64,000 bases of DNA from Alphaproteobacteria bacterium (GCA_017409215.1 JAFQTD010000036.1:14038-78037); one strand, 5' to 3'. Counted from the first letter of the stretch, positions 14,788 through 23,057 are shown. The notes: a model not told the origin generated them from the letters alone. Translations and numbers: made by a program.

Positions 14788-14861
14788 TGGGGTGTCGTCT
14801 AATGGTAGGACAAGAGATTTTGGTTCTCTTTATCATGGTTCGAATCCGTGCGCCCCAACCA
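14788..14861 (+). tRNA. tRNA-Gln (anticodon TTG)
   Basis: A full cloverleaf was folded by hand. Acceptor UGGGGUG/CGCCCCA carries the U1-A72 pair typical of bacterial tRNA-Gln. D stem is GUCU/GGAC, anticodon stem AGAGA/UCUCU, loop UUUUGGU. T arm is CAUGG-UUCGAAU-CCGUG. Discriminator A and CCA are encoded. Confidence 0.85.
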
Positions 14862-14898
14862 ATATTCAAACGCCCCTGATGGGGCGTTTTAATATTGG
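14857..14898 (+). repeat. 42-bp direct repeat copy 1 (tRNA-Gln 3' end / att-like core plus terminator hairpin)
   Basis: AACCAATATTCAAACGCCCCTGATGGGGCGTTTTAATATTGG is identical to 16085-16126. Confidence 0.8.
14868..14890 (+). terminator. rho-independent terminator after tRNA-Gln
   Basis: AAACGCCCC-TGAT-GGGGCGTTTT. The same hairpin recurs inside the 42-bp direct repeat at 16096-16118. Confidence 0.6.
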
Positions 14899-15054
14899 CT
14901 TTGTTGCGCCCGTTTGATTTGAAACATCGTCCGCCTTTGGCGTGACAGGTTCGACTATGAGTAAGCGAAAACAAGCCTTGCGTAGTTTGAGCGCTAACGA
15001 ATGCGGCGCAGTGTCGGCACTGCCGACCGAGCCAATCCGTGCGCAATTTTTACA

Positions 15055-15214
15055 GTCCGAAAGTCAAATTTCGATTTTTTTCTTTCTAAATATACTTTCG
15101 AACCGCGTATAACACTCTAAAAACATTCGAACAAAGCATAATATTACAAAACCAACATAAAACCGCTCTAACCAGCATGTCTGTTCAATATGGTTGTGGG
15201 GTGCTGGCAAAACT
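15055..15214 (+). repeat. 165-bp cassette-boundary repeat, copy 1 (hairpin TTCGAAAGT...ACTTTCGAA plus inverted att-like arm)
   Basis: Roughly 75% identical to 18097-18262. It ends in TGTTCAATATGGTTGTGGGGTGCTGGCAAAAC (15183-15214), the reverse complement of the right-hand arm at 16067-16099. Confidence 0.7.
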
Positions 15215-15222
15215 AATAGATT

Positions 15223-16020
15223 TTATTTTACTTTTCTACAGATATATAACAAATGATTACTGTATCCTTGTTGATCTAATCTTTCACAGGTCCTAAAATG
15301 CCACTCTAAAAAAGCCTGATAATCTTTCTTTGGTAAATCCTCAATCAACTCACGCAAAACAGGTCCAATTCCATCGGCACTAACATTTGTTATATATTTC
15401 GTATTCGTTTTTGCAAATAACTTCTTGAAATCTTCAACATAAAAAGCAGCAAAGATTTCTTCTGGAATATCTGCTACTCTACCTTCTTTATCCATGCATC
15501 TGGTAAGCAAATCATAACATTTATGATGTCTTAAACCATATGTGGTCATTATCGTTGCACTTGATATGTATGCAAACATACAAACGCCGTTTTTCTTGGC
15601 CACACGAATTGTTTCTTTGATTGCTTGATTTTTATCTTTTTTATTAAACAAATGATACATTGGTCCTAAATTCAAAACCATATCAAAAGAATTATCTTTG
15701 AACATGCTTAAATCCAGCGCATCGCCAACCATACATTGAAAATTTTTCAACTTACGAGATTTGCGTTTCATTATTTCAACGTATTTAGGGGTTAAATCCA
15801 CAGCCGTAACATCGTAACCCATCTTTGCCAAAGCAATCGAATACCGCCCAGTTGCGGCACCAATTTCAAGTATCTTTGCACCTGGTTTCAAAAATTTTTG
15901 AATATACCGCATAGTCGTCAAATATTCCATGTTATGCGCCCGGTCTTTGATTAACCGAGAATCTTCATCATAGTCAGTATAATTGTTTATAATGATATCT
16001 TTATGTTTATTTAGTGTCAT
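15223..16020 (-). CDS. class I SAM-dependent methyltransferase
   Basis: 265 aa with methyltransferase motif I ILEIGAATGRYSIALAKMGYDVTAVDL. An extended -10 promoter TGGTATAAT lies at 16047-16055 (minus strand) and inverted att-like repeats flank the gene. Confidence 0.8.
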   Translation of the reverse strand: MTLNKHKDIIINNYTDYDEDSRLIKDRAHNMEYLTTMRYIQKFLKPGAKILEIGAATGRYSIALAKMGYDVTAVDLTPKYVEIMKRKSRKLKNFQCMVGDALDLSMFKDNSFDMVLNLGPMYHLFNKKDKNQAIKETIRVAKKNGVCMFAYISSATIMTTYGLRHHKCYDLLTRCMDKEGRVADIPEEIFAAFYVEDFKKLFAKTNTKYITNVSADGIGPVLRELIEDLPKKDYQAFLEWHFRTCERLDQQGYSNHLLYICRKVK

Positions 16021-16084
16021 ATTATAACCTTTATTTAATCATGACAATTATACCATATCAACTCGCGTTTTGCCAGCACCCCAC

Positions 16085-16126
16085 AACCAATATTCAAACG
16101 CCCCTGATGGGGCGTTTTAATATTGG
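16085..16126 (+). repeat. 42-bp direct repeat copy 2
   Basis: Identical to 14857-14898. It is preceded by CACCCCACAACC (a degenerate tRNA acceptor 3' strand). A further tRNA 3'-end copy GTGCGCCCCAACCA at 16246-16259 and a terminator at 16269-16294 follow. Confidence 0.8.
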
Positions 16127-16401
16127 ACGGGGCCAAGGTTCGTAATCTGCAACGTTAGTTGCCGGTTCGACAATGAGTAGATTTGAGAAGCGCAGCGCCA
16201 TCAAATCGTCAGGAATGCCCCGCAGGCGAAAGCCGAGGGAATTGAGTGCGCCCCAACCAAGATGTGCAACCGCCCGTTTCTGGGCGGTTTTTTGTTTGTT
16301 TTCTATTATTTTCACTGAGTTCGAAAGTTGGAGTTAAAAAATAGTGAATTTTTGATACTTTCGAACTTTTGTGGTATAATCTCAGAAAAGGATGAATTTT
16401 A

Positions 16402-16947
16402 ATGCAACCGTTATCAAATTTTCCGCAAACAATCAAAACTCCACGATTGGTGTTGCGGGTGTTGGCGCCAACAAAAGAAAACGCAGCAAAGATTTTGAAT
16501 ATTATTGAACAAAATCGTGATTATCTTATGGAGTGGCAAGGTCATTTTGGCGAATTAAAAACCATTGATGATGTGGTGGCATATTTAACAAAACGTGCTA
16601 ATCAAATTAAAACTAATCAAGGAGTCTGTTTTTATATTTACAATAACGATAATATTATTGGTCGAATTCGTTTTTTTAATATTCAAGACAATGGATGTGA
16701 AATAGGATATTGGTTGATAAAATCTGTAAATGGCAACGGATTTATGAGTGAAGCACTGCAAGCATTAGAAACAGAATTATTCAAATTTGGTTTCAGCAAA
16801 ATTACATTGGATATAGACAATGGAAATATTCATTCAGAAAATTTAGCGATACGCAACGGGTATAAATTGGAAAAACGCTTGCCAAATGCTTCATGGGCAA
16901 AATGTGTTGGTAAATGCGATTCATTGATTTATGTAAAAGAAAGATAA
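16402..16947 (+). CDS. GNAT-family N-acetyltransferase (RimJ/RimL-like)
   Basis: 181 aa with a GNAT fold (YWLIKSVNGNGFMSEALQALETELFKFGFSKITLDID). TGGTATAAT at 16372-16380 and RBS AAAGGA upstream. Confidence 0.8.
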   Translation: MQPLSNFPQTIKTPRLVLRVLAPTKENAAKILNIIEQNRDYLMEWQGHFGELKTIDDVVAYLTKRANQIKTNQGVCFYIYNNDNIIGRIRFFNIQDNGCEIGYWLIKSVNGNGFMSEALQALETELFKFGFSKITLDIDNGNIHSENLAIRNGYKLEKRLPNASWAKCVGKCDSLIYVKER

Positions 16948-17086
16948 TATTTTAATAAAATTTCTTTTTCATCCCATCAAGCTCTCGCCCAATCTCCGCC
17001 AATTCAGTTCGCGAACTGCACAGACACCCCAACCAAAATAAAACAATGCCCACCAGGGGGCAAGTCTTTGTTCGGAATACAAGTTT

Positions 17087-17836
17087 CTATTCGTGGGTTG
17101 ATTGGTTCTGTTTTTGCAAAATAATTTCATTAACAATTTGTTTAATGCGTGATGGGGCCATAAATAAATTTGGCGCATAATCCAGCACAGTATAAAAAAG
17201 TTTTTGGTCTTGGTGTATCTTGTTCCACCAACCAAGCCCTTTATTACATTGTGTTATAAAATACTTAATGTCTTTGGGGTGAAATCTGGATGTGACCCCA
17301 ATCAACAAATCATACGCATTTGTATGATTGTTAACCGGGATATCTTGCAATACAGGGTTTAACATTTTTATTTCGTTAACCATGTTTTCCATATTCATCA
17401 ATGCAACATTCTGATTTTTGTTGCTTGTAAAATGCGCTATTATTTTTCTTTTTTCTTCGTCATTCAATTCGCCCGTTACACTGTTCAAAAAGTCTAAATA
17501 TTGCTGTTTCTCTTTGGCTGTTGCATCTGGGGCGCCTTGGAATATATAATCGACATACAGTTCTGGATTTTCAATACGCAGTGGTTCAAACAAACCCAGA
17601 TAATACATATTGTTCATTACTTTTTTTTCATAGTCGGCTTCAGTAATACCATCAGGAAACTTATATTGGTGTGAAATCGGACATGCAGTAATAAAGCCAT
17701 CATCGGCCAGTCGACGTTCAAAATTCACCGCAGATGACCAATGCCCATTTTTAAACACAGCTTCCTTATCAAGGATATTGCTTATCACCTTTTGTATTTT
17801 TTTTGCATTTGAAAAATTTGAATTAGTTATTTGCAT
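17087..17836 (-). CDS. hypothetical protein (orphan, island-encoded)
   Basis: 249-aa ORF with a GGGGAA RBS and no recognisable domain. A degenerate direct att-like copy lies downstream at 17024-17066. Confidence 0.5.
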   Translation of the reverse strand: MQITNSNFSNAKKIQKVISNILDKEAVFKNGHWSSAVNFERRLADDGFITACPISHQYKFPDGITEADYEKKVMNNMYYLGLFEPLRIENPELYVDYIFQGAPDATAKEKQQYLDFLNSVTGELNDEEKRKIIAHFTSNKNQNVALMNMENMVNEIKMLNPVLQDIPVNNHTNAYDLLIGVTSRFHPKDIKYFITQCNKGLGWWNKIHQDQKLFYTVLDYAPNLFMAPSRIKQIVNEIILQKQNQSTHE

Positions 17837-18096
17837 ACGTTCCCCTGATTCATGCTGTTTATTGTATAGTATCGTCTTGTGTTTTGCAAATTTATAAACA
17901 ATTATTGATATTCTTTCCGAATATAAACCGTGGGAATTGGTAAATTATTTTGCGTTTAGTTCCAAAGATGCTGCATTGGAATTTGAACAATATCTTAAAA
18001 CAGGTTCTGGACACGCATTCGCAAAAAGACATTTTTGGAAGTAATTTATCAAGGGGCCGTAGCGCATTCCAGAGAGCAAAACAAATACCCTTTGAC

Positions 18097-18262
18097 GAGT
18101 TCGAAAGTCAAATTTCGATTTTTTATCTTTTCAAACACACTTTCGAATCCCTTATAACACTCTAAAAACATTCGAACCAACGACAATATCATAAAACTAA
18201 TGAAAATCTGCTCTAACAGGTCTTTTTATTCAAAGTGGTTGTGGTCGGTGGGCGGCCGTCAA
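18097..18262 (+). repeat. 165-bp cassette-boundary repeat, copy 2
   Basis: GAGTTCGAAAGTCAAATTTCGATTTTTTATC...GGTTGTGGTCGGTGGGCGG aligns along its full length with 15055-15214. Confidence 0.7.
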
Positions 18263-18294: not shown

Positions 18295-19578
18295 CTATTG
18301 ATTACCTAAATTTCTGCGTTGTTGCATCTCCATATAATACAAATCATTAAATCGATTTTGTTTCTTTTGTTTGTTCATTAAAATTTGCTGACCTTTTTCA
18401 AACGCCTCTATTTTTGCTTTTGATTCTTCTTTTTTAGGTTCTTTGATTGCTGTTTGTTGTCCATATATTATCCTGTTTTTATGCATATCAGATATTTTGA
18501 TTAATTCATCTGTCGCCTGTTTTTGTACTTTTTCATCGTTGCGCAAATAAGCCTGTTTAATTATACGTCTATAATCGTTTGCTATCCCGTTTGAAATAAG
18601 TCCTTCGCGTGCAGAGCTGCCTATATACCTACTTAGCTTTTCCAGTTCGTATTGAGCAGACCCAAAATCACCATTTGTATTAAATTCATTATAAGCCGCC
18701 ACAAAATCTTTCGCTTTATTAATAACATCTAGAGATTTATATTGAGATTGTACCAACGAAGTTTTATCTAATACATCTAATTGATCGAGCAGTATTTTCT
18801 TTAATCTTTGTGTAGCATCTGTTTTTGATATGCCGCCATCTTTTGCCCAAGACAATATATCTCTGTATTCTTGTTTCATTTGTTCGGAAAGCAAACCTTT
18901 GTCGTTAGCTTCTCTTAGTCCAGCCCACATATTGTCGAAAGAATTAGGATCAAAATCGTTCCCTTTCTTTAAAACATCCGTCAATGCAAATACCGTTTCT
19001 GCCCCCATCTGTTTATCTTGATTCATTTGAGAGGAATTTATCGGTTTTTGCTCTTCTTTTTTAGGTTCCTTGATTGCTGTTTGTTCGATATTAGATAAGG
19101 GCGGTTGTTTGTTTTGATTTTCTTGGTGTTCTTTAATTATATTTTTTTCAACATCAGACATGGGCATCTGCTGTTCTGGAACATGTTGTGTTTTACTTTT
19201 ATGCAGCTCTTGTGTTTCTTTCAAAAAATCAGTTATACCAACATCTAATTTACGCATCGGATCCCACGTATATTCATCGTGCGCATACTCGCCAAGTGCC
19301 GACGATTTTATGTGAGACAAATCATTAGTCATATTGTTATATAATTCATTAAATTTTTCTAATTGAGAATAATCAACCCCGCGTTTAAAGTCTAATTCTT
19401 CATATATAAATTTTGTCAAAGGGTTAAAAGAATTTGCTATAAACTCGTATGCTGTTGCAGCATATGGTTGACCCGATCTTTGCATATGCCCAATCATTTG
19501 TTCTGCTTTTTGTTGTACGCTTAATAGATTCTTAACTATATCATAAAATTTTTCTGCTTGTTCTTGTGATAGTTGCAT
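18295..19578 (-). CDS. hypothetical Lys/Glu/Gln-rich protein with internal tandem duplication
   Basis: Start moved to the ATG at 19578 (RBS GAGAGGAATAAT), because the track start at 19659 lies inside the att-like repeat at 19633-19657. Motif QTAIKEPKKEE occurs twice. The DNA repeat TTTAGGTTC(T/C)TTGATTGCTGTTTGTT sits at 18421 and 19061. Confidence 0.5.
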   Translation of the reverse strand: MQLSQEQAEKFYDIVKNLLSVQQKAEQMIGHMQRSGQPYAATAYEFIANSFNPLTKFIYEELDFKRGVDYSQLEKFNELYNNMTNDLSHIKSSALGEYAHDEYTWDPMRKLDVGITDFLKETQELHKSKTQHVPEQQMPMSDVEKNIIKEHQENQNKQPPLSNIEQTAIKEPKKEEQKPINSSQMNQDKQMGAETVFALTDVLKKGNDFDPNSFDNMWAGLREANDKGLLSEQMKQEYRDILSWAKDGGISKTDATQRLKKILLDQLDVLDKTSLVQSQYKSLDVINKAKDFVAAYNEFNTNGDFGSAQYELEKLSRYIGSSAREGLISNGIANDYRRIIKQAYLRNDEKVQKQATDELIKISDMHKNRIIYGQQTAIKEPKKEESKAKIEAFEKGQQILMNKQKKQNRFNDLYYMEMQQRRNLGNQ

Positions 19579-19684
19579 ATTATTCCTCTCTATCGGTAAT
19601 AATATACCATAAAAAACATAAGTTTTCAAATCGCGCTCCGCCCACTGGCCACAACCCAAAAAAAACCAGTCATACGGCTGGTTT

Positions 19685-20467
19685 TTACTTTACTTTTTGC
19701 GATATGCCTTGCCACATAACTTTCTGTTTCTCGTTTTCAAAAATTGCGATTGGTATTTCATATACGTGGCTTTCAACACCGTTATAAAGTTCTTTGGTTA
19801 GTGCGACGTGCTTTGATGCCGCATTGTGCAATTCTTCAATACGCTTTAGGATATATGTATCGCCTATGTATTCTGGGTATCGTAAATATTCATATTCAAA
19901 TACGGGACTGCCAGTAACGATTTTGTATATCTTGGATATGTCTGTAAAATCAATTTCATCATCACTGTTACGGTTATACCATTGGTAATGTTTGTGGTTA
20001 ATACCTGGGATAGAGTTGATTCTTATATCGTCCAATCGGTCCAAGAATCTTTGTGGATTGATATATTCCAAGTTTGCACGTTTCCCATCAATAGATATGA
20101 CCTTGGTTTGCAAATCCTCAGGCTTGATATAAGTGGGACGATTTGGATTATAAAACATTTTTAAGGTTTCCAGTGTACAGTCTGGCACTTCCAGAATTGT
20201 GTCTTTATTAGTTAATTTATAAGGCACAGATTGCAGATTGATTGTCAGTGGGTGCGGCAAGTTAAAATCCACAGTGTTATAACTTTGAATTACATATTGT
20301 GGCGTACATGTTGTATATGTTAATTTATCCCCAGATTGTGTCAGGAAAACACATTCTGCCCATCTGTATCTGTTGCGGTCGTATTGTGTCCTGTATTCTA
20401 CATTCACAGGACGCGCCATACTTTTATGTTTTTCTAATACATTCGCGTTTAATGGAACGGTTAGCAT
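19685..20467 (-). CDS. hypothetical protein (orphan)
   Basis: 260-aa ORF with no recognisable motif. A terminator-like hairpin AACCAGTCATACGGCTGGTTTTT lies near 19667-19689, close to the stop. Confidence 0.45.
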   Translation of the reverse strand: MLTVPLNANVLEKHKSMARPVNVEYRTQYDRNRYRWAECVFLTQSGDKLTYTTCTPQYVIQSYNTVDFNLPHPLTINLQSVPYKLTNKDTILEVPDCTLETLKMFYNPNRPTYIKPEDLQTKVISIDGKRANLEYINPQRFLDRLDDIRINSIPGINHKHYQWYNRNSDDEIDFTDISKIYKIVTGSPVFEYEYLRYPEYIGDTYILKRIEELHNAASKHVALTKELYNGVESHVYEIPIAIFENEKQKVMWQGISQKVK

Positions 20468-20654
20468 TTTTTTCTCTTATTTCTTTATTCTCTGCCAGTT
20501 CCCCCTGTATGTCGGCATTATAAACAAGGCTGTGCTTATCGCGCAAGTAAAAACACAGTGAAACTTATATTATAAAAATATCAAGACAACATATTACGGA
20601 CTATGCAGAACATTAAACGAAAAAAAGAAGGGCGGTCCCTTCTTTTTCTTCAGC

Positions 20655-21767
20655 CTATACCTTAAAATCTTTGCGTTTACGATTACATTTAGGGTCGGTC
20701 ACACTGGGTGCATTCAGAATAGGCAGATTTTTGGGATTTTGATATTGGCAACCGTGCTCTAAAACAGTCATATCTTGAACGGCCCAACCTCTTCCAAAAT
20801 TATCAAACCCTTTGGCGCTTTTATGCAAGGCCCAACGCTTTGCGGTAATTTGTTGACGTAAATCCGGTCCCTTATAATCCTTGATTGCCTGAAATGTTTT
20901 GGGACCCAAATAGCCGTCTGCGTCTGTTCCGACAATTGATTGCAGTGTTTTTACTAAAACTTTGGCTGTGCCGTTGCCTTGATTAAAGGCAGTTGAAAAG
21001 AAATCGCCACGTAGTGCATCAGGCAGTTGGTTGAATTTATAGTTTTTATAAAAGTGACCATACGCAATATCTTGTGCGTCATGAATAGAAAATTCTGGAT
21101 TGTTTACAGAGTCTGCAAAGTATCTTTCTGTCACACCAAAACAAGTTATTCCCGCCCCATCACCAACATCAGAGCATACAGGTGCTTCGATTCTAAGTTG
21201 TGTAGCCCACGCCTTTTGGAAAGCGGGGTCGTTATGATATTTGTTGTTTGGTGGACAGTACAAATTTGCCACACGACCATCGGTATATTTAATTGCAGGT
21301 GTGCATGACTGATTAAATCTGTTAAAATCTGCCAAGCCAATAGTGTATGCAGGTTGTGCATCCCTGGTGTATTCAATCATATCTTTTATAAAATTATTTT
21401 TGCACGATAAAAAGGTGCTTGTAGTGAACGAGCTATGTCCTGCAAGACAAATTTTCATCAGGTTTCGCGCAGACAAATATCCCTGGTTTTTTGATGCTAA
21501 TTCTTCATACTGCGCAATGGCGTTATTTAAATTCTGTCCTTCGAAATGTTGTGCCAGCGCTACTTCTGCGATGCTTGGGTCGAATAAAATTGCGTTTTCT
21601 CCATCTTTATTAACACCGATATTGTTATCTGGCTGTGGCACGTTTTGCGTCAGTGACAAATCGCCAAGTGAATCCAGTTCGTTTATGATTTCGTTGTGAT
21701 AGGCCAAGGCATTTTGAATCAACAATCCAGACATTGGAATAAAGAGTATTGTAAATATCTTTCTCAT
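20655..21767 (-). CDS. secreted GH108-family muramidase with PG_binding_3 domain and unknown N-terminal extension
   Basis: Start at the ATG at 21767 (AGGAG RBS) gives signal peptide MRKIFTILFIPMSGLLIQNALA. The C-terminal half has the GH108-like block IEAPVCSDVGDGAGITCFGVT and the peptidoglycan-binding block DADGYLGPKTFQAI. The N-terminal ~190 aa are Cys-containing and of unknown fold. Confidence 0.65.
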   Translation of the reverse strand: MRKIFTILFIPMSGLLIQNALAYHNEIINELDSLGDLSLTQNVPQPDNNIGVNKDGENAILFDPSIAEVALAQHFEGQNLNNAIAQYEELASKNQGYLSARNLMKICLAGHSSFTTSTFLSCKNNFIKDMIEYTRDAQPAYTIGLADFNRFNQSCTPAIKYTDGRVANLYCPPNNKYHNDPAFQKAWATQLRIEAPVCSDVGDGAGITCFGVTERYFADSVNNPEFSIHDAQDIAYGHFYKNYKFNQLPDALRGDFFSTAFNQGNGTAKVLVKTLQSIVGTDADGYLGPKTFQAIKDYKGPDLRQQITAKRWALHKSAKGFDNFGRGWAVQDMTVLEHGCQYQNPKNLPILNAPSVTDPKCNRKRKDFKV

Positions 21768-21786
21768 AAAAAAACTCCTGCTTTTT

Positions 21787-22812
21787 TTACAACGCATCAG
21801 AACAATTTTCTGCAACTTCGATTAATTTCTTAATTACACTGATTTGCGATGCGTTAAATGCAGTTGCAACCGCGCTAGAAACAGTTGCGCCTGCAGCCAA
21901 AACATTTGCGGTGGTATTTAAGTTTTTTTCTTTTTGTTCTGCGCCTGTGGTACTATCATTTCGAATGTTTTTGCTGTTTGCAAGTGCGCTGACAATGGTT
22001 CCTGCGCCACCTGTGGTTGCGGTTGCTATTGATGATATTTTTGCACCTGTTGCGCGTTTATCGATTTTCGATAAGTCTATATAGTCATAACCCTCACACG
22101 CTGTGATTACATCAGCGGCATCAAATGTAGGTTCGCCTGAGATTTGTGCTGCCTTATATGATAATCTTAAATCAGACATTGCGTTGATGCAATTTTCAAC
22201 TTGGTCTTTTAATGATTGGTCTGTTTTATTTTTGTCTGCGATAATTGCCCCTGCAACACCTGTCACAGTGGTACCTGCCAACAATCCTGTTCTTAAATTG
22301 CCCAGATTTTTTGATTTTTTCTGCAGTTCATCCGTATTGTCTGTTGCCTCAGCCTGCTTTTCTTCTGAGGTACCAAAATCTTCAAAGTTAAGATTTTCTA
22401 CGTCATTGGAAAGCTGATCCAAAGCACTTTCTGTTGCTTTACCAGCTGTTTGTGTACCTTTAAGTGTTTCTCTGGTTTTCTCCAGTCGTACAGATAATGC
22501 TTTGTCTATACCTGCTTTTTTTATCCCGGCAACTGTTGCGCCGACCCCTAAACCCGTTCCGACACCAGTTATCGCGGTGTTTATTCCGGCCATTTTTTTT
22601 AATTCATCCAGACTATCTTCTATTCCATTGCATTCCCTATAAACAGCGCCCAGCGCTTCGTCCAATGGTAAAGGTTCCGCATCGGCAAAACCAGGGCACA
22701 ACATAACCATAACAACAAAGTGCTTGTAAATTTTCACTGTATTCTCCTTTGCCAAGAATTGTATCATAAATACCAACTTGAAACAAGTGTGAATCTTGTT
22801 TTTTTTTCCCAA
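21787..22812 (-). CDS. secreted Ala/Gly/Thr-rich protein, paralog of 57789-58727
   Basis: Signal peptide ...HFVVMVMLCPGFADA. Shared blocks with the paralog: YxxCxGIxDxLxxLKKMAGINTAIT.VGT..G.GATV.GI.K and KEKNLNT..NVLA......ATA..FNA.QIS.IKK..EVA..C. The true start may be an internal Met near 22767. Confidence 0.55.
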   Translation of the reverse strand: MGKKNKIHTCFKLVFMIQFLAKENTVKIYKHFVVMVMLCPGFADAEPLPLDEALGAVYRECNGIEDSLDELKKMAGINTAITGVGTGLGVGATVAGIKKAGIDKALSVRLEKTRETLKGTQTAGKATESALDQLSNDVENLNFEDFGTSEEKQAEATDNTDELQKKSKNLGNLRTGLLAGTTVTGVAGAIIADKNKTDQSLKDQVENCINAMSDLRLSYKAAQISGEPTFDAADVITACEGYDYIDLSKIDKRATGAKISSIATATTGGAGTIVSALANSKNIRNDSTTGAEQKEKNLNTTANVLAAGATVSSAVATAFNASQISVIKKLIEVAENCSDAL

Positions 22813-22982: not shown

Positions 22983-23057
22983 GCTCCCATCGTCTAGCGG
23001 TTAGGACACCAGATTCTCATTCTGGTAACACGGGTTCGATTCCCGTTGGGAGTGCCA
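22983..23057 (+). tRNA. tRNA-Glu (anticodon CTC as read)
   Basis: Cloverleaf folded by hand. Acceptor GCUCCCA/UGGGAGU, D stem GUCU/GGAC, anticodon stem CCAGA/UCUGG, loop UUCUCAU, T arm ACGGG-UUCGAUU-CCCGU. CCA is encoded. Confidence 0.8.

Follow-up and report, generated by a model that had tools for sequence, protein, structure and literature searches.

The roughly 165-bp repeat that recurs in the window (the whole 64-kb stretch of DNA that was analysed) is probably a composite junction module of a cassette island at tRNA-Gln, built on a site, here called S, that would be the cognate site of a family of large serine recombinases (LSR). The probability of this reading is put at about 0.55. The module has a defined anatomy and lies at cassette boundaries; its S dyad is under selection and is linked to LSR genes throughout the recombinase family. 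From the comparison of sequences, the long copies of the module are best read as recombinase-less LSR modules, either remnants or solo sites, which bound cassettes.

The window contains two long copies, copy A at ~15054-15214 and copy B at ~18097-18262. Their global alignment gave 74.1% identity over 166 columns, in agreement with the repeat of about 165 bp and 75% identity described in the original prediction, and a score of 76, compared with -17 ± 6 (maximum 4) for shuffled sequences. Two blocks are common to both copies without a difference, the hairpin 23-mer and the 25-mer TATAACACTCTAAAAACATTCGAAC, with none expected by chance. The hairpin arms TTCGAAAGT / ACTTTCGAA occur five times in the 64 kb versus 0.56 expected, and all five occurrences fall at 15.0-18.2 kb. 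The third, shortened hairpin copy that had been predicted was found at 16318-16367. The long copies abut the 3' ends of two minus-strand genes, a methyltransferase gene and a gene for a 427-aa protein, also as predicted. Two details of the earlier description have to be modified. The hairpin is real, but the left arm of copy A, AGTCCGAAAGT, departs from the consensus at one position. What was described as a terminal 'att-like arm' is likewise present, both long copies ending in TGGTTGTGG...GGC, but it is actually one half of a 23-nt inverted repeat.

A long copy is made up of three parts. Part 1 is S, which consists of the 11-nt inverted arms AGTTCGAAAGT / ACTTTCGAACT with 29-30 nt between them and measures 50-52 bp. 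Part 2 is a stretch of about 20 nt with a defective -10-like box, TATAAC or TATAAA, in which the key T is missing. Part 3 is an inverted, degenerate copy of the series tRNA-Gln 3' end, terminator, spacer and S arm. In nhmmer searches the 3' 90 nt of a long copy, reversed, aligned to the standard junction, CCCCAACCA followed by terminator, spacer and arm; this reverse-orientation homology covers model positions 70-158, and positions 16249-16329 of the window are among the matches. The outermost 23 nt of part 3 form one half of an inverted repeat, the other half of which is found past the adjacent cargo gene.

The island is anchored by the tRNA-Gln(TTG) gene (14788-14861) and its terminator hairpin (14859-14898; hairpin I9), both on the plus strand and identified with ARAGORN and Rfam; BLAST against related loci showed that the synteny of MarR and tRNA-Gln is kept in related species. 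The S site of copy A (15054-15104) is composed of AGTCCGAAAGT, a 29-nt loop and ACTTTCGAACC, with mismatches to the consensus at two of the 22 arm positions. In the remainder of copy A (15105-15213, plus strand) the -10 box reads TATAAC (15108-15113) and is defective. After it come a third arm, ACATTCGAAC (15123-15132), the inverted spacer, which includes a degenerate terminator (15133-15190), and, at 15191-15213, the 23-nt inverted repeat TGGTTGTGGGGTGCTGGCAAAAC (I3). Next to it lies the first cargo gene (15223-16020, minus strand), assigned by Pfam to the class I SAM methyltransferases and enclosed by the 23-nt inverted-repeat pair. It has a promoter of its own in the promoter scan (TGGTATAAT, 16047-16055). 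The partner of the copy A repeat, GTTTTGCCAGCACCCCACAACCA (16067-16089, plus strand), is 100% complementary, and a copy of the tRNA-Gln terminator with 98% identity comes after it (16081-16126, plus strand; repeat D2).

The block at 16246-16289 (plus strand) holds a displaced copy of the tRNA-Gln 3' end, GTGCGCCCCAACCA (16246-16263; repeat D5), followed by a strong terminator (16268-16289). It is the left part of the standard junction module, with many homologous junctions in related loci. The short copy of S (16318-16367, plus strand) has perfect arms and a 28-nt loop, and is overlapped by the GNAT promoter, with the -35 element TTGATA at 16352-16357 and the extended -10 element TGGTATAAT at 16372-16380 (plus strand). 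The GNAT gene itself occupies 16402-16947 (plus strand). Its cassette is closed at 17023-17062 (plus strand) by a tRNA-3'-end-like copy (..ACACCCCAACCA; 17023-17035) with a terminator, just before which lies the T-arm-like palindrome GCAGTTCGCGAACTGC. Pieces homologous to this junction are present in other loci. The S site of copy B (18098-18149) is composed of AGTTCGAAAGT, a 30-nt loop and ACTTTCGAATC. The remainder of copy B (18150-18258, plus strand), which includes an inverted spacer with a degenerate terminator, carries TATAAC (18153-18158), the third arm ACATTCGAAC (18168-18177) and the inverted repeat TGGTTGTGGTCGGTGGGCGGCCG (18236-18258). The 427-aa cargo ORF (18295-19578, minus strand) lies between this repeat and its imperfect partner GCCCACTGGCCACAACCC (19635-19657, plus strand; 3 mismatches in 18 at 19640-19657), which is followed by a bidirectional terminator (19661-19686). 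Each long copy in the window has two arm mismatches and is thus relatively decayed for an S site. A conserved small ORF was also looked for on either strand of the two copies; none exists, because the ATG of copy A is not kept in B and the alignment contains indels.

A pattern scan for S returned 70 loci; Ca. Enterousia and other Alphaproteobacteria of the gut or rumen account for about 45. Most of the related loci are the variable region just downstream of the orthologous tRNA-Gln, and full-length long copies were found in 13 other loci (E-values 1e-15 to 1e-40). Counted from tRNA-Gln, the first S belongs to a long copy in at least ten species. The original prediction that the repeat may be the boundary module of the cassettes is supported by these relatives, since the same module is found where cassettes meet, downstream of tRNA-Gln, in 12 or more related species. 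Their standard junction consists of a tRNA-end copy, terminator, spacer, S and promoter. Pairs of 23-nt inverted repeats around single-gene cassettes occur in the window and in about nine other cases (L003, L007, L015 with three, L021, L057 and L065); the central 7 nt are the same within a pair and differ between cassettes. The cargo genes seen were methyltransferases, acetyltransferases, phosphatases and HD hydrolases. The GNAT cassette is also present in a different genome with 87% identity, and two species representatives share a histidine-phosphatase cassette at ~100% identity. When viral contigs were scanned with the S pattern, only one chance match was obtained, in a coding region.

The island has features of a tRNA-targeted insertion, with an intact tRNA-Gln at its edge and GTGCGCCCCAACCA copies at 16246 and 17023. 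Its G+C content is 35.5%, compared with 40% in the flanks. In other samples of the same species (L076-L078) an extra island is present, with its junction 16 nt from the tRNA-Gln 3' end. In one further sample of the species the sequence left of S copy A has been replaced, and identity stops at 15054.

A link to the recombinase comes from related genomes, in which a gene for an LSR of 522-537 aa is located between parts 1 and 3 of the module. As the gene lies exactly there, the long copies of the window would be recombinase-less versions of the LSR module. The protein encoded at L040:393-2006 has the domains Resolvase, Recombinase and Zn_ribbon_recom, and the LSR catalytic domain matches the TP901-1 integrase. 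At six loci the LSR gene stands between 100%-identical inverted repeats of 119-131 nt, which begin at the tRNA 3' end and extend across the S loop; these repeats of about 130 nt enclose a unit of 1.55 kb. Linkage of an LSR gene and S was seen at 15 related and unrelated loci (L040, L049, L054, L064, L066, L072, L073, L047 and L083-L089), and S is embedded in the coding sequence, at its 3' end, of LSRs that come from several phyla and are 28-51% identical. Homologues of the LSR numbered 1177 in the search. The LSR genes abut seven kinds of tRNA gene, among them those for Gln, Glu, Leu, Tyr, Thr and Asn. In the wider recombinase family the LSR stop codon is inside the tRNA gene, and the tRNA terminator hairpin is encoded within the C-terminal PFD motif of the LSR. 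The geometry is constant: 13 of 14 recombinase-linked S sites measure 52 nt, in seven of nine the distance to the tRNA end is 80 nt, and the spacing from arm to TATAA is 4 nt in long copies and LSR-type S alike. Scanning the metagenome with the recombinase gave two loci only, each of them informative, and the viral contigs gave no match. The literature search found no description of LSR genes that abut tRNA genes, of a covarying 52-bp dyad in the recombinase's own coding sequence or of a terminator-encoding PFD motif, and no account of this cassette and recombinase system.

The dyad is maintained by selection. Compensatory changes were found at six of the 11 arm pairs, so that S changes in step with the recombinase lineage, and pairing is kept in 94.7% of cells. 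The observed arm covariation score was reached by none of 500 shuffles, and slid controls gave 17-46%. At L089 the tRNA has an unusual T-loop and the S arms match it, and at L047 the S arm is kept although the reading frame differs. Of 79 S sites in non-coding island remnants, 47 have arms that are perfect, and changes affect about 3% of arm positions, while the loops and flanks vary freely in sequence; the loop measures 29-30 nt in 74 of 75 sites. S thus has the properties expected of an LSR att-type site, for which a length of about 40-50 bp, a partial dyad and conserved outer motifs at fixed spacing are characteristic. Its size, outer inverted motifs and fixed spacing correspond to the usual layout of LSR attP sites, such as those of phiC31, Bxb1 and A118.

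Covariation of the S stem across the recombinase family would also be explained by a hairpin acting in the recombinase mRNA, and a position at the 3' ends of convergent genes, as the long copies have, would fit an RNA. A functional RNA (a small RNA, a 3'-UTR element or an S hairpin that acts in RNA) is nevertheless very unlikely. Only one G.U pair occurs among 132 stem cells, and the loop stays at 29-30 nt even in non-coding remnants. S is itself unlikely to be transcribed, because in standard junctions it lies between the terminator and the promoter. No covariation was detected in the 3' ~110 nt of 14 long copies, for which RNAalifold predicted only the invariant S hairpin. Single-sequence folds of the 3' ~115 nt gave z-scores of -0.2 to +1.2 on either strand and were no better than shuffles. 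Rfam searches at gathering and permissive thresholds (E≤5) returned tRNA only and no match for the repeat. With these results, and with the defective -10 box, the earlier suggestion of a small structured RNA is not sustained.

S might instead be mainly a transcription module, i.e., a stereotyped promoter with a two-part operator, with the long copies as decayed promoters that stayed behind where cassettes end and the link to the recombinase incidental. TGnTATAAT is located 9-10 nt after 24 of the 61 S sites of the clade, with a ribosome-binding site and start codon in 21 of these 24. No other promoter-like site of the region matches as well as the GNAT copy (TTGATA-17-TATAAT with TG, 11 of 12 matches). 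The loop is AT-rich and resembles an UP element, and the -35 element overlaps arm 2. Yet S and its compensatory arm changes are kept inside the 3' coding ends of recombinase genes in several phyla, and at these sites TATAAT is absent or antisense. The long copies also retain S, whereas their -10 box is without the critical T. A centre-to-centre spacing of 40 bp is unusual for a simple operator and counts further against this explanation, which is considered unlikely. In the preferred reading, that of a recombinase site, S would in the short version also provide the UP and -35 region of an outward promoter, while in the long version the promoter would be dead and the module would serve as a boundary or recombination site only.

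The inverted repeats allow two further explanations. In the first, the repeat is a MITE-like or foldback element, the ends of which are the tRNA-like 23-nt repeats or inverted junction modules, and its transposase is encoded elsewhere. Such an origin would fit the single genes flanked by inverted-repeat pairs with a pair-specific core, the 1.55-kb unit between perfect 130-nt inverted repeats in the LSR loci, and the resemblance of a long copy to two inverted module ends with a short centre. It is, however, improbable: the inverted-repeat pairs enclose the cargo gene rather than the repeat, target-site duplications were looked for and none were seen, and the one enzyme with consistent linkage belongs to the serine recombinases and not to the DDE transposases. 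All copies found are in tRNA-linked islands, with none elsewhere in the 64 kb; every copy in the window is within 3.3 kb of the island, and those found at the loci of other genomes are at tRNA-linked islands as well.

In the second, an invertible, phase-variable cassette is marked by the module, and an invertase acting at the 23-nt inverted repeats flips the cargo gene. Across species, repeat-bracketed cassettes are indeed found either way round between the same outer flanks, and the identity of the central 7 nt within a pair is what crossover regions must have. Against this, the methyltransferase cassette has a single orientation on 13 of 13 contigs with the identical protein, which is not the pattern of an inverton, and the window has no adjacent invertase gene. 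Flipping would not switch expression in any case, because the cargo promoters lie inside the repeats. The orientation of the LSR relative to the tRNA is the same in seven of seven loci; together with the methyltransferase contigs this gives no sign of ongoing inversion, and phase variation of this kind is highly improbable.

In the recombinase-site reading, a clade-specific island of gene cassettes would grow at the 3' side of tRNA-Gln, and S would be the cognate cis-site of an LSR family whose genes end against tRNA genes. An LSR dimer would bind the S arms, and the S-bearing modules may be the places where cassettes are joined, exchanged or turned. The proposal that the repeat is a recombination module is plausible to this extent: S is a conserved cis-site of a tRNA-associated LSR family, but the 64-kb window has no recombinase gene in it or beside its island, where Pfam and PHROG scans of the surrounding genes gave neither an integrase nor a recombinase. 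Homology breakpoints among S copies, from which a crossover point was sought, are scattered over arm 1, the middle of the loop, arm 2 and TATAAT, and neither hybrid attL/attR sites nor a crossover dinucleotide was recognised among the copies. An intact, symmetric S stands beside the LSR gene in the integrated state, which a simple attP × attB reaction would not leave. With its position 80 nt within the element, S could have an accessory or regulatory function and need not be where crossover takes place. Models worked out by hand (S × S in parallel or antiparallel, and fold-back of the S hairpin) were rejected, as none yields the order S, 20 nt, inverted arm, spacer and inverted tRNA end.

Comparison with known systems gives a mixed picture. 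Like the attP and attB sites of the LSRs phiC31, Bxb1, TP901-1 and A118, S measures about 50 bp, has outer inverted motifs with fixed spacing, is located directly at the recombinase gene and changes in both arms together between lineages. Unlike them, it is part of the recombinase coding sequence, with 80 nt between it and the tRNA junction, is intact and symmetric when integrated, and survives within a single island in dozens of copies that lack a recombinase. The tycheposon islands of Prochlorococcus are an example of tRNA-anchored islands that form by tandem accretion, with integrase insertion at tRNA 3' ends. The present island is similar to such islands in that it starts at a tRNA 3' end, is punctuated by displaced 3'-end copies, and shows strain-specific insertion and recombinase-less remnants with cargo. 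It differs in its units, mostly single genes with a stereotyped junction, in the many inverted rather than direct tRNA-end copies, and in the serine recombinase. With the SCC elements of staphylococci (Ccr LSRs at rlmH) it shares LSR-associated cargo, tandem build-up at one chromosomal site and the persistence of recombinase-less pseudo-elements; however, it flanks a tRNA gene instead of rlmH, its units are far smaller, and the LSR has a dyad site within its own gene and perfect 130-nt inverted repeats around it.

Resemblance to integron attC arrays extends to single-gene cassettes, a recurrent site that is an imperfect palindrome, a fixed anchor and cassettes shared by different genomes. The island is nevertheless not an integron. 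No integrase, and thus no IntI tyrosine recombinase, is near it, the GTTRRRY/RYYYAAC cores are absent from the repeat, and the cassettes are neither promoterless nor one-way: they have extended -10 promoters and terminators of their own, occur in both orientations and carry the site 5' rather than 3' of the gene. It is conceivable, although doubtful, that the tRNA-Gln islands are an integron-like cassette platform run by an LSR in place of a tyrosine integrase, in which S, present on each cassette, takes the role of attC and attI and supplies the promoter, a tRNA 3'-end copy and a terminator insulate the units, and palindromic recombinase modules permit insertion in either orientation.

If the tRNA-Gln islands were such a platform, the wider recombinase family would represent a class of serine integrases targeting tRNA genes that has yet to be described. 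Because LSRs with defined sites are sought for genome engineering, a family whose cognate site is compact and predictable is of practical interest. The two recombinase-less copies in the window are a modest part of this wider LSR picture. If S works as a recombinase site, a little-studied group of gut Alphaproteobacteria with reduced genomes would keep a hotspot at which single accessory genes are swapped between species.

Two long intergenic repeats were confirmed in the window, copy A at 15055-15214 and copy B at 18097-18262, which are 74.1% identical over 166 aligned columns and score 76 in alignment, where shuffles score -17 ± 6 and at most 4. They have the 25-mer TATAACACTCTAAAAACATTCGAAC in common without a mismatch, where none is expected by chance. 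The repeat contains a palindromic hairpin site, here called S, of 50-52 nt with 11-nt inverted arms and a 29-30-nt loop. Five occurrences of the arm motif TTCGAAAGT / ACTTTCGAA are found in the 64 kb (0.56 expected), each of them within 15.0-18.2 kb, and the short third copy proposed upstream of the GNAT promoter is also real (16318-16367). Both long copies lie, as originally observed, on the 3' side of genes, adjoining the 3' ends of a minus-strand SAM methyltransferase gene (15223-16020, copy A) and a minus-strand 427-aa ORF without family matches (18295-19578, copy B).

The repeat-bearing stretch has a G+C content of 35.5% (vs 40% in its flanks) and starts at tRNA-Gln(TTG) (14788-14861), which is preceded by a MarR and RND-efflux operon. 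Partial copies of the tRNA-Gln 3' end, each followed by a terminator, are located at 16076-16126, 16246-16289 and 17023-17062. The 'att-like arm' ascribed to the repeat is present in copy A, where it proved to be the left half of a perfect 23-nt inverted repeat bracketing the methyltransferase gene (15191-15213 and 16067-16089); read directly, its reverse complement is a degenerate tRNA-Gln 3' end (GTTTTGCCAGCACCCCACAACCA vs GGTTCGAATCCGTGCGCCCCAACCA). An imperfect partner of the arm of copy B lies past the 427-aa gene (19640-19657). Such 23-mer pairs surround single-gene cassettes in the window and in related loci (L003, L007, L015 with three cassettes, L021, L057 and L065). Their central 7 nt are constant within a pair and differ between cassettes (e.g., GGTGCTG, TGTGTGG, CCGGCCA), and across species the bracketed gene is found in either direction relative to the same outer flanks.

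Further features were noted in this region. Two related non-coding pieces of ~140 nt (14899-15050 and 16127-16262), each after a tRNA-Gln terminator copy, begin with TTGCGCCCG...GGTTCGAC(T/A)ATGAGTA and finish with ...GTGCGC(CCCAACCA); in predicted folds the two ends of each piece pair with one another (z -1.3 and -1.7). The pieces are found again in other loci (85% identity to L039), and in L080, from the same species in another sample, the second type stands in place of the first. Either minimal insertions that lack a gene or a small tRNA-like RNA could account for them. The C-terminal remnant of a plus-strand GIY-YIG nuclease gene (PWELVNYFAFSSKDAALEFEQYLKTGSGHAFAKRHFWK and stop; 17920-18045, tail to 18076) is followed by GCGCATTCCAGAGAGC, which is located between tRNA-Gln and the long copy in at least eight other species. 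A minus-strand gene block between the island and tRNA-Glu (19685-22812 and 22983-23057, respectively) encodes an endolysin-like protein with GH108 and PG_binding_3 domains (PHROG endolysin, E=5e-21) and two proteins of 260 and 341 aa without family match; it is possibly a phage or island remnant.

A profile search showed homology between the 90 nt at the 3' side of the long copy, in reversed orientation, and the standard junction of CCCCAACCA, terminator, spacer and S arm, examples of which include 16249-16329 in the window. The order in the long copy is S, 4-5 nt, TATAAC or TATAAA, a third arm ACATTCGAAC, inverted spacer, inverted degenerate terminator and inverted tRNA-end-like 23-mer. The proposal that the repeat is a small structured RNA was not borne out by folding, Rfam or the -10-like box. 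RNAalifold on 14 long copies predicted nothing except the invariant stem of S, the 3' 115 nt of A or B folded no better than shuffles on either strand (z -0.2 to +1.2), an Rfam search of the repeat gave no match even at E≤5, and the -10-like box of the long copies lacks the final T.

A scan for the pattern CGAAAGT-N25-35-ACTTTCGAA-N3-12-TATAA in one genome per species yielded 70 loci, ~45 of which belong to Candidatus Enterousia and other Alphaproteobacteria of gut or rumen; most of these ~45 are directly downstream of an orthologous tRNA-Gln. S was found in three contexts, short, long and recombinase-abutting. The short type (24 of 61 sites, including the GNAT copy of the window) has a tRNA-end copy, a terminator and a ~30-nt spacer upstream, and TGnTATAAT 9-10 nt downstream, followed by a ribosome binding site and a gene; no other site in the region resembles a promoter as closely as the GNAT copy. 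The long type accounts for 15 sites, and a profile built from A and B detected full-length long copies in 13 other loci (E 1e-15 to 1e-40). Since the first S after tRNA-Gln is a long copy in at least ten species, A is taken as the orthologous copy and B as a second one. The long copies of the window are 73-84% identical to those of L005, L044 and L045, and the MarR and OEP coding DNA is 70-72% identical in the same comparison. A second island of the same kind is situated at tRNA-Gln(CTG), beside choloylglycine-hydrolase-family and DUF1015 genes (L072 6552-9197; also L036, L041, L043, L048, L053, L063 and L067), which accounts for the S-bearing loci without MarR.

In the loci L040, L049, L054 and L066 (L064 in part), S is followed by a gene for a 537-aa protein with Resolvase, Recombinase and Zn-ribbon domains. 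This protein is a large serine recombinase (LSR), whose catalytic domain is a distant relative of that of the TP901-1 integrase. The gene lies within a segment of 1542-1556 nt between 100% identical inverted repeats of 119-131 nt, which start with the final 6-7 nt of the tRNA, continue over a terminator-like linker and take in the left arm and the loop of S. This layout recurs at tRNA-Gln(CTG) and tRNA-Asn in two metagenome relatives (83% and 77% identical). Past the distal repeat follow an inverted pseudo-tRNA 3' half and an outward promoter, homologous to the 23-mer and promoter of the bracketed cassettes. The layout is thus tRNA end, linker, S, LSR gene, inverted S half, inverted linker, inverted tRNA end and cargo. 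The window's long copies keep this order, with ~20 nt where the LSR gene would be, and the spacing between arm 2 and TATAA is 4 nt in both; they are therefore read as recombinase-less LSR modules.

The first stop codon of the recombinase ORF lies beyond S and the linker, within the antisense tRNA gene (L040 1821-2006; L047, L072, L073, L083-L089). The conserved C-terminal motif K-PFD-x-L-x-K of the recombinase is coded by CCGTTCGA..., a sequence that doubles as one strand of the tRNA terminator hairpin. In the window, the tRNA-Gln T-loop GGTTCGAATCC and the sequence just 3' of the tRNA, ATATTCAAAC, form an S-like motif pair 35 nt apart (14837-14871). Its midpoint, between GCC and CCAACCA, is the exact start of the 130-nt repeats of the recombinase loci; the pair is, by eye only, a candidate attB.

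The arrangement extends to the wider recombinase family. L047 (Elusimicrobia), seemingly a chance pattern match, in fact contains tRNA-Gln, terminator, S and an LSR gene (28% identical) that reads through S and terminates inside the tRNA. Homologues with 32-51% identity, drawn from a faecal virome set and public assemblies, repeat it, the adjacent tRNAs being those for Glu, Leu, Tyr, Gln and Thr; in one relative of 34% identity the tRNA is missing, and so is S. S measures 52 nt in 13 of 14 cases and lies 80 nt from the tRNA 3' end in seven of nine. Its arms covary, with compensatory double changes in 6 of 11 pairs (e.g., AGTCCG...CGGACT and GTTCGCAAA...TTTGCGAAC); 94.7% of arm cells are paired (17-46% in slid controls), and none of 500 shuffles matched the observed covariation. 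Arm changes alter the protein (SSK...LSN to SP...LSD) and L047 retains one arm in a different reading frame, which places the selection on DNA or RNA and not on protein. G.U pairs make up one of 132 cells. In the islands the recombinase reading frame around S is decayed and S is retained; the arms are perfect in 47 of 79 sites, with ~3% of arm positions changed, and 74 of 75 loops are 29-30 nt long, although the sequences of loop and flanks vary freely. Given the fixed spacing, the exact complementarity and the survival outside a transcribed gene, S fits better as a symmetric protein-binding DNA site than as an RNA hairpin. Its size and outer-motif layout match those of LSR attP sites (phiC31, Bxb1). 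The tRNA-Thr beside the recombinase in L089 (4052-4126) has an unusual T-loop, AAGTCCGATTCTT, with C instead of the near-universal T55, matching the S arms of the same element, AAGTCCGAT; this suggests that the 3' half of the tRNA comes from the element and that the T-loop motif is what the recombinase recognises.

The region varies within and between species. The identical methyltransferase protein occurs on 13 contigs, some from the window's own genome. L076-L078, from other samples of the window's species, have another island at the 3' end of tRNA-Gln, whose insertion left the displaced copy CCGTGCGCCCCAACCA; in L076 (1172-7853) and L077 (4587-6602) it stands between tRNA-Gln and the methyltransferase cassette, and it contains genes for a Slam-like TPR protein and a 186-aa small serine recombinase besides several unknown genes. 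L077 and L078 lack 17894-18033, the stretch with the GIY-YIG remnant. In L080 the sequence on the left side of S copy A is another ~140-nt piece plus terminator and spacer, and identity to the window stops exactly at 15054. A histidine-phosphatase cassette is ~100% identical between species from TATAAT to ~35 nt before CAACCA, and its S loop and flanks differ; the GNAT cassette is common to the window and L041 from S onward (87% identity). Homology breakpoints are scattered, without a single position, and no inversion polymorphism was seen, with one orientation in 7/7 LSR loci and 13/13 methyltransferase contigs.

No recombinase gene is present in the 64-kb window. Beside the recombinase, S is intact and symmetric in the integrated state, which is not what attP x attB recombination leaves. 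As it also lies 80 nt inside the element, S may have a second or accessory role, with the crossover at the tRNA made elsewhere. Of the simple recombination schemes considered, none yields the perfect 130-nt repeats or the cassette-specific 23-nt pairs. In the literature searched, the repeat/recombinase system is nowhere described, and no title among papers naming Enterousia points to it. The original prediction of a recombination or boundary module is carried forward in the reading, given a confidence of roughly 0.55, that the repeat is a junction module without recombinase in a cassette island anchored at tRNA-Gln, and that the core of the module is the cognate site of a tRNA-associated LSR family. 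On this reading it would be a variant of the known serine-recombinase sites and tRNA-anchored islands.
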